From Escherichia coli (GTDB taxonomy: Bacteria; Pseudomonadota; Gammaproteobacteria; Enterobacterales; Enterobacteriaceae), in the NCBI RefSeq assembly GCF_024700885.2, contig NZ_CP117016.1: a stretch of DNA of 64,000 nucleotides. One strand, written 5' to 3'. Positions 60,406-60,438 of this stretch are shown in pieces. Positions within the stretch are counted from its first letter, which is position 1. Each line of letters opens with the position of its first letter. The position numbers and the translations under genes are program-made. The notes beneath the pieces are model-generated. The model was not told where the DNA came from, ran no database searches, and saw nothing but the letters and a program-made list of their open reading frames with translations.

Positions 60406-60438
60406 CCCTCTCCCTTAGGGAGAGGGTTAGGGTGAGGG
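60406..60438. repeat. GC-rich palindromic intergenic repeat unit (CCCTCTCCC-TTA-GGGAGAGGG followed by TTAGGGTGAGGG), Box C-like
   Basis: Perfect 9-bp inverted repeat plus adjacent GGGTGAGGG-type motif between pepA and holC; family assignment from memory only. Confidence 0.4.

Follow-up and report, generated by a model that had tools for sequence, protein, structure and literature searches.

What is the GC-rich palindrome that lies between pepA and holC in Escherichia coli, and does it serve the genes on either side of it? The question is raised by a 64,000-nucleotide stretch of E. coli DNA (hereafter the window), whose initial annotation had drawn attention to a perfect 9-bp inverted repeat at 60406–60438 accompanied by a further G-rich motif, and had compared it with small intergenic repeat families rather than with terminators, suggesting that it could bind a protein or affect RNA stability at the pepA 3′ end. 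The repeat has exactly the sequence and the coordinates claimed for it. We consider, with a probability of roughly 0.8, that the palindrome belongs, as a perfect type-A copy, to the E. coli repeat known as BoxC, PIT, TM-ECO or HPG1, and that it would have no dedicated function at pepA–holC, where several kinds of palindromic repeat settle interchangeably. The element, its family and the pepA–holC copy itself are already published; what follows concerns the evidence for this assignment, the behaviour of the locus among strains and species, and the roles that might be attributed to the repeat.

Layout of the element and its locus

The genes are arranged in the order valS, holC and pepA, all on the minus strand, followed by lptF on the plus strand. 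Other E. coli genomes contain the identical sequence, and their RefSeq annotation places pepA and holC in the same way; the spacer between the two genes measures 131 bp in the window. The features of the locus are as follows.

59874–60317, minus strand: holC coding sequence (147 aa), 3′ of the spacer and on the same strand as pepA
60320–60347, minus strand: conserved holC leader, TATTTAAATCCACCACAAGAAGCCCCAT on the gene strand, common to all alleles and to most of the Enterobacteriaceae examined
60348–60445, no strand assigned: strain-variable cassette of about 98 bp, the other alleles examined in E. coli have between one and four REP/BIME units in its place
60358–60366, plus strand: CCTCACCCT, a perfect 9-nt complement of block 3 (60429–60437), 62 nt away (repeat search)
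60389–60446, plus strand: dispersed-repeat unit of about 58 bp, delimited by paralogue matches to positions 44/45–97/101 of the query 60346–60446
60406–60414, plus strand: block 1, the C-rich arm CCCTCTCCC (sequence and repeat search)
60415–60417: loop 1, TTA
60418–60426, plus strand: block 2, GGGAGAGGG, forming a 9-bp hairpin with block 1 across the TTA loop
60427–60429: loop 2, TTA (the type A loop)
60430–60438, plus strand: block 3, GGGTGAGGG, separated from block 2 by TTA
60451–61962, minus strand: pepA coding sequence; the element lies 13–45 nt past its stop codon, the transcript carrying the C-rich side

Block 3 is the adjacent G-rich motif of the initial annotation. The repeat search recovered the inverted arms as 10-nt segments of 100% complementarity (60406–60415 and 60417–60426), together with a direct 12-nt repeat, TTAGGGAGAGGG and TTAGGGTGAGGG. 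As DNA, the hairpin formed by blocks 1 and 2 has a predicted energy of −9.9 to −10 kcal/mol on either strand, while blocks 2 and 3 taken together (GGGAGAGGGTTAGGGTGAGGG, 60418–60438) constitute a (G3N3)3G3 motif, that is, a canonical G-quadruplex motif with four G3 tracts and loops of 1–7 nt.

Nine loci of the window form perfect stems of 9 bp or more, as compared with about 1.4 in shuffled sequence, and one could imagine that the palindrome is a chance occurrence without any family relationship. However, it is the three-block arrangement, and not the hairpin as such, that marks out 60406–60438: GGGWGAGGG is present three times in the 64-kb window, always inside the 33-bp span, against an expectation of 0.41 from the shuffles. 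The existence of about 20 paralogues per genome with common flanks, and the identity to published catalogue entries described below, rule out a chance palindrome, the probability of which we regard as practically nil.

The position of a GC-rich 9-bp hairpin so close behind the pepA stop codon also invites its interpretation as an intrinsic (Rho-independent) terminator of pepA, and such repeats were presumed in the genome paper of Enterobacter sp. 638 to terminate transcription (PMC2869309). Nevertheless, the combination of a GC-rich stem with a U/T tract is not found here, since no such tract follows the stem on either strand, just as the initial annotation had observed in setting a terminator aside. 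A consensus scan of 60200–60600 on both strands likewise returned neither terminator-like nor promoter-like sites, and PIT elements lack terminator activity according to work cited in PMC4666352. On these three grounds we reject the terminator, which appears very improbable.

Membership of the BoxC family

Reportedly, BoxC and PIT elements were studied by Bergler and Bachellier in the 1990s and by Hoyne and Maher in 2000–2002. BoxC was the first name of the repeat, for which a length of 56 bp and a number of 32 copies are quoted in PMC2267715. It was re-described later as the potential intrastrand triplex (PIT) element and, by Holder et al. in 2015, as TM-ECO; these authors distinguished two types among 23 copies in K-12, type A with TTA and type B with CCG as the second loop (Table 1, PMC4666352).

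The element in the window is built in the same manner. It consists of three blocks of 9–10 nt (C-rich, G-rich, G-rich) with short loops that allow a double fold-back, its second loop is TTA, and it belongs to a set of sequences that is dispersed and intergenic, with some 20–30 copies per E. coli genome. Indeed, a blastn search of 5,426 complete E. coli genomes with 60346–60446 found 20 matching places in the median genome and 37 in the richest; this genome-wide search for further copies, suggested by the initial annotation, supports its proposal of a small intergenic repeat family, one that has been published as BoxC, PIT and TM-ECO. The similarity extends beyond the core of 34–36 nt to the whole of 60389–60446, which includes the conserved type-A 5′ flank GCGCTCGATCGGTT common to the K-12 copies at hrpB–mrcB, lldD–trmL and fepB–entC. 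The closest paralogue is the hrpB–mrcB copy of K-12, with 92.6% identity including the left flank GCTCGATCGGT. In the copies that we collected, the 5′ flank reads GCGCnCGAWCGGTY in type A and TTTTCT in type B. Furthermore, the exact 34-mer CCCTCTCCCTTAGGGAGAGGGTTAGGGTGAGGGT accounts for 12 entries in the supplementary TM-ECO table (PMC4666352), including E. coli HS and SE11, in which it occupies the same locus; the HS entry, at 4520554–4520587, falls between holC and pepA. No essential difference separates the window copy from the published family. It merely represents the less common perfect form, as 13 of the 23 K-12 copies retain a stem mismatch, the commonest variant of the family (PMC4666352).

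Two other published descriptions come close to this element. The 21-nt core GGGAGAGGGTTAGGGTGAGGG is identical to the putative G-quadruplex motif cHPG1 (bioRxiv 10.1101/032615), which also has a C-rich region 3 nt upstream; the two are one and the same element under different structural readings, between which NMR favours the triplex over the quadruplex (PMC4666352). The repeats of Enterobacter sp. 638, of the form CCCTCTCCC-XX(X)-GGGAGAGGG, have the same arms and often occur in duplicate or triplicate at gene 3′ ends, but they number about 100, mostly contain TGT/ACA loops and are described without a third block (PMC2869309).

REP/BIME elements are likewise small palindromic intergenic repeats. 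In most E. coli, as in the remaining Escherichia species examined, it is they that fill the pepA–holC spacer, which is then structured to a comparable degree. Their sequence, GCCGGATGCGGCG / GCCTGATGCGACGC, is nevertheless unrelated, and REPs come with an established transposase (RAYT) and with identified protein partners, whereas BoxC is not known to have either. Membership of the window element in the REP/BIME family was rejected, the consensus palindromes (GCCGGATG... / GCCTGATG...) being absent from the window spacer and present in the alternative alleles.

An Rfam scan of 58000–64000 at a permissive E-value returned no family over it, the only hit being a chance-level match to whalefall-1 (E = 1.9), and a pattern search assuming a 4-nt loop gave no match, the actual loop being 3 nt. 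The version of the K-12 annotation (NC_000913.3) consulted carries no repeat features in the pepA–holC, lldD–trmL and fepB–entC spacers.

Strain variation of the spacer

The allele found in the window, with its 131-bp spacer, is present in 1,404 of the 5,426 complete genomes (about 26%), the flanking coding sequence being present in 5,425. In the other alleles examined, the spacer contains one to four REP/BIME units and has the following lengths.

S17-1 (K-12-derived): 159 bp
PEC145: 257 bp
Strain 536: 257 bp
O157:H7 SS52: 353 bp
SCPM-O-B-8794 (species representative): 455 bp

All that the alleles have in common is the 28-bp holC leader and a few bases beside the pepA stop codon. K-12 carries a BIME and no BoxC at pepA–holC, in agreement with Table 1 of PMC4666352, so that public data from K-12 are uninformative on the pepA 3′ end of the BoxC allele. 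The window allele is devoid of any REP motif. The BoxC allele is very uniform (1,328 of 1,405 matches show at least 99% identity), and its conservation therefore says little about constraint. Among five sequences of this allele, from the window and four strains, the few variants all fall outside the three blocks, each of the four strains differing from the window at one to three positions of the spacer. The SNPs in the flanking parts of holC and pepA display no allele-linked pattern that would mark a single recombination tract for the BoxC allele. Of the 1,407 matches obtained with the 131-bp spacer, two are located on plasmids, and at least one genome, that of strain WB61, has two places, which suggests occasional duplication or transfer of the pepA–holC region.

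A locus as polymorphic as this one calls to mind the instability model of Holder et al., in which the G-rich strand, once single-stranded, would adopt a triplex or G-quadruplex that stalls replication or repair and thereby drives rearrangement. In vitro, oligonucleotides of type A do fold into an intrastrand triplex of great stability that melts at about 82 °C, and strains differ far more at loci with the motif than at control intergenic sites (PMC4666352). The GC skew, positive across the window, identifies the plus strand as the leading strand, so that the G-rich strand with its canonical (G3N3)3G3 motif is the lagging-strand template; on the reading preferred here, this template can fold back while single-stranded and plausibly contributes to a local turnover of insertions and deletions. 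On the other hand, the duplex form yielded no triplex and in vivo DMS footprinting failed to detect one (PMC4666352). Moreover, the BIME alleles vary in copy number without any BoxC, so the instability observed here need not stem from BoxC, and copies of the BoxC allele hardly differ from one another in sequence. An unusual DNA structure as the cause of rearrangement at pepA–holC appears possible, albeit doubtful.

A second inverted repeat and the folding of the spacer

The initial annotation overlooked the complement of block 3 at 60358–60366. Pairing with this arm gives rise to a nested fold that involves the whole spacer. The spacer RNA of the pepA strand has a predicted folding energy of −45.7 kcal/mol (z = −5.1), and the z-scores for spacer DNA range from −4.5 to −4.8 on either strand.

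The arm at 60358–60366 is probably what remains of an inverted partner copy of BoxC. Copies of types A and B form an inverted pair at five K-12 loci, and such A+B pairs are often trimmed in a manner that still permits hairpin formation (Holder et al., PMC4666352). Intact inverted A+B pairs are found between the pepA stop codon and the holC leader of Pseudocitrobacter, Kosakonia, Phytobacter and several other Enterobacteriaceae, and GCTCATCTTTCAGGGTGAGGA of the window, which keeps a degenerate hairpin, falls in the alignment where these pairs have their second copy; it is this correspondence that points to a relic. An intact second BoxC copy was not seen in any of the E. coli alleles examined.

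The regular occurrence of types A and B as inverted pairs recalls the termini of mobile elements, and conservation across copies is strong in the loops no less than in the stems. Both traits would fit a site recognized by a specific protein, such as a nucleoid protein or a putative enzyme that mobilizes BoxC. Yet no binding protein has been reported, and the TM-ECO motif shows no association with transposons, phages or plasmids (PMC4666352), which leaves a dedicated protein-binding site with only a slim chance of being correct.

The strong folding of the pepA-sense RNA raises the question of mRNA stability. BIME/REP elements are classical mRNA-stabilising stem-loops in other operons, and a BIME is precisely what the alternative allele carries at this site. 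On the reading we favour, the BoxC copy, like the BIME in its place, would provide the pepA 3′ or intercistronic RNA with a stable 9-bp GC hairpin, contained in a longer stem, and may thus be a REP-like barrier to 3′ exonucleases rather than a terminator. As an RNA-stability element proper, the hairpin, at the pepA 3′ end or within an intercistronic transcript, would block 3′-to-5′ exonucleases and stabilise pepA mRNA relative to holC–valS. As no promoter-like site is detectable in the spacer, holC may be read through from upstream. Against this, the K-12 copies display no bias in orientation or position relative to genes (PMC4666352). In addition, the prevalence of the stem mismatch among them makes it less likely that a perfect RNA hairpin has been selected and fits the spread of a master copy better. 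An mRNA-stabilising role for the BoxC copy is therefore rather unlikely in our opinion, even when the widespread folding of the orthologous spacers, described in the next section, is counted in its favour.

By analogy with other copies, a dedicated function here seems improbable: promoter or terminator activity and any effect in vivo are reported as lacking for other PIT elements, as far as these reporter and in vivo results are summarised in PMC4666352. A literature search for additional functional work on PIT elements yielded nothing beyond the studies cited here.

Comparison across Enterobacteriaceae

The comparison comprised 77 Enterobacteriaceae species in which the pepA–holC spacer could be delimited. 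Palindromes of REP type alone, a class assigned by a loose pattern, were found in about 52 of these spacers, ERIC in 12 and BoxC-type repeats in about 13; BIMEs are found in the Escherichia species examined besides E. coli, E. albertii and E. whittamii among them. Since ERIC occurs in 12 of the 77 species alongside REP-type and BoxC repeats, three unrelated repeat families make use of one and the same site. ERIC-like spacers are found, for example, in Salmonella enterica subsp. arizonae, Klebsiella spallanzanii and species of Kosakonia and Raoultella (the loci include L017, L021, L029, L036, L038, L040, L043, L050, L051, L060 and L075).

Of the 77 spacers, 90% are strongly structured as compared with shuffled sequence (median z = −5.2), against 1% of the pepA coding controls. 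This may reflect either a preference of palindromic repeats for insertion at this site or selection for any stem-loop, both explanations being compatible with the data. If some stable stem-loop were indeed selected, REP/BIME, ERIC and BoxC would have been recruited interchangeably, the BoxC and BIME alleles of E. coli would represent a long-lived polymorphism of functionally equivalent modules, and 60358–60366 would be the relic of an A+B pair trimmed in such a way as to keep a hairpin. This scenario, taken as a whole, strikes us as unlikely, and we favour a BoxC copy that has settled here without a dedicated function.

Tandem amplification of the repeat was observed in two species, with a unit of about 61 nt in three copies in Pseudocitrobacter faecalis (L015, 1215–1500) and a unit of about 49 nt in Enterobacter sp. 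kpr-6 (L057, 1312–1500). In both cases the unit contains a slightly degenerate CCCTCTCCC/GG(A/G)AGAGGG hairpin and is located between outer B and outer A copies. The amplification of these units implies that BoxC hairpins can expand in tandem.

Significance of the locus

As a discovery the present element carries little weight, the element, family and copy having been in the literature before. What is added here is the strain variation at the locus, the second inverted repeat and the sharing of a repeat site across 77 species. For annotation purposes, BoxC/TM-ECO repeat is the label that the spacer should bear, in place of terminator or small-RNA candidate. A further merit of the locus is that it amounts to a convenient natural experiment, in which about 26% of E. 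coli have BoxC and the other alleles examined one to four BIMEs between the same two essential-pathway genes. A comparison of strains or an allele swap could probe the effects of the repeats on the expression of neighbouring genes or on genome stability.

Other features of the window

Besides the element, eight perfect hairpins with a stem of at least 9 bp and a loop of 1–8 nt are present in the window, at 5264–5288, 13793–13815, 28533–28554, 33836–33861, 46396–46420, 46572–46595, 47021–47046 and 56975–56998. The last of these, just beyond the stop codon of valS (57019), is probably the valS terminator. The Rfam model of Ysr276 (RF02850, Yersinia sRNA 276) is matched over its full length antisense within the pepA coding sequence, at 61210–61404 on the plus strand, with 180.8 bits where the gathering score is 100 (E = 2.6e-55); the match may represent conserved pepA coding sequence captured in the model. 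In the divergent spacer between pepA and lptF, corresponding to about 62050–62170 of the window (plus strand), the K-12 annotation places the tiny proteins YtgB and YtgA, and strain 536 has ytgA. Finally, the GC content drops to 0.444 in 48001–56000 and to 0.478 in 8001–16000, as compared with about 0.52 elsewhere, and these two low-GC segments may have been acquired horizontally.
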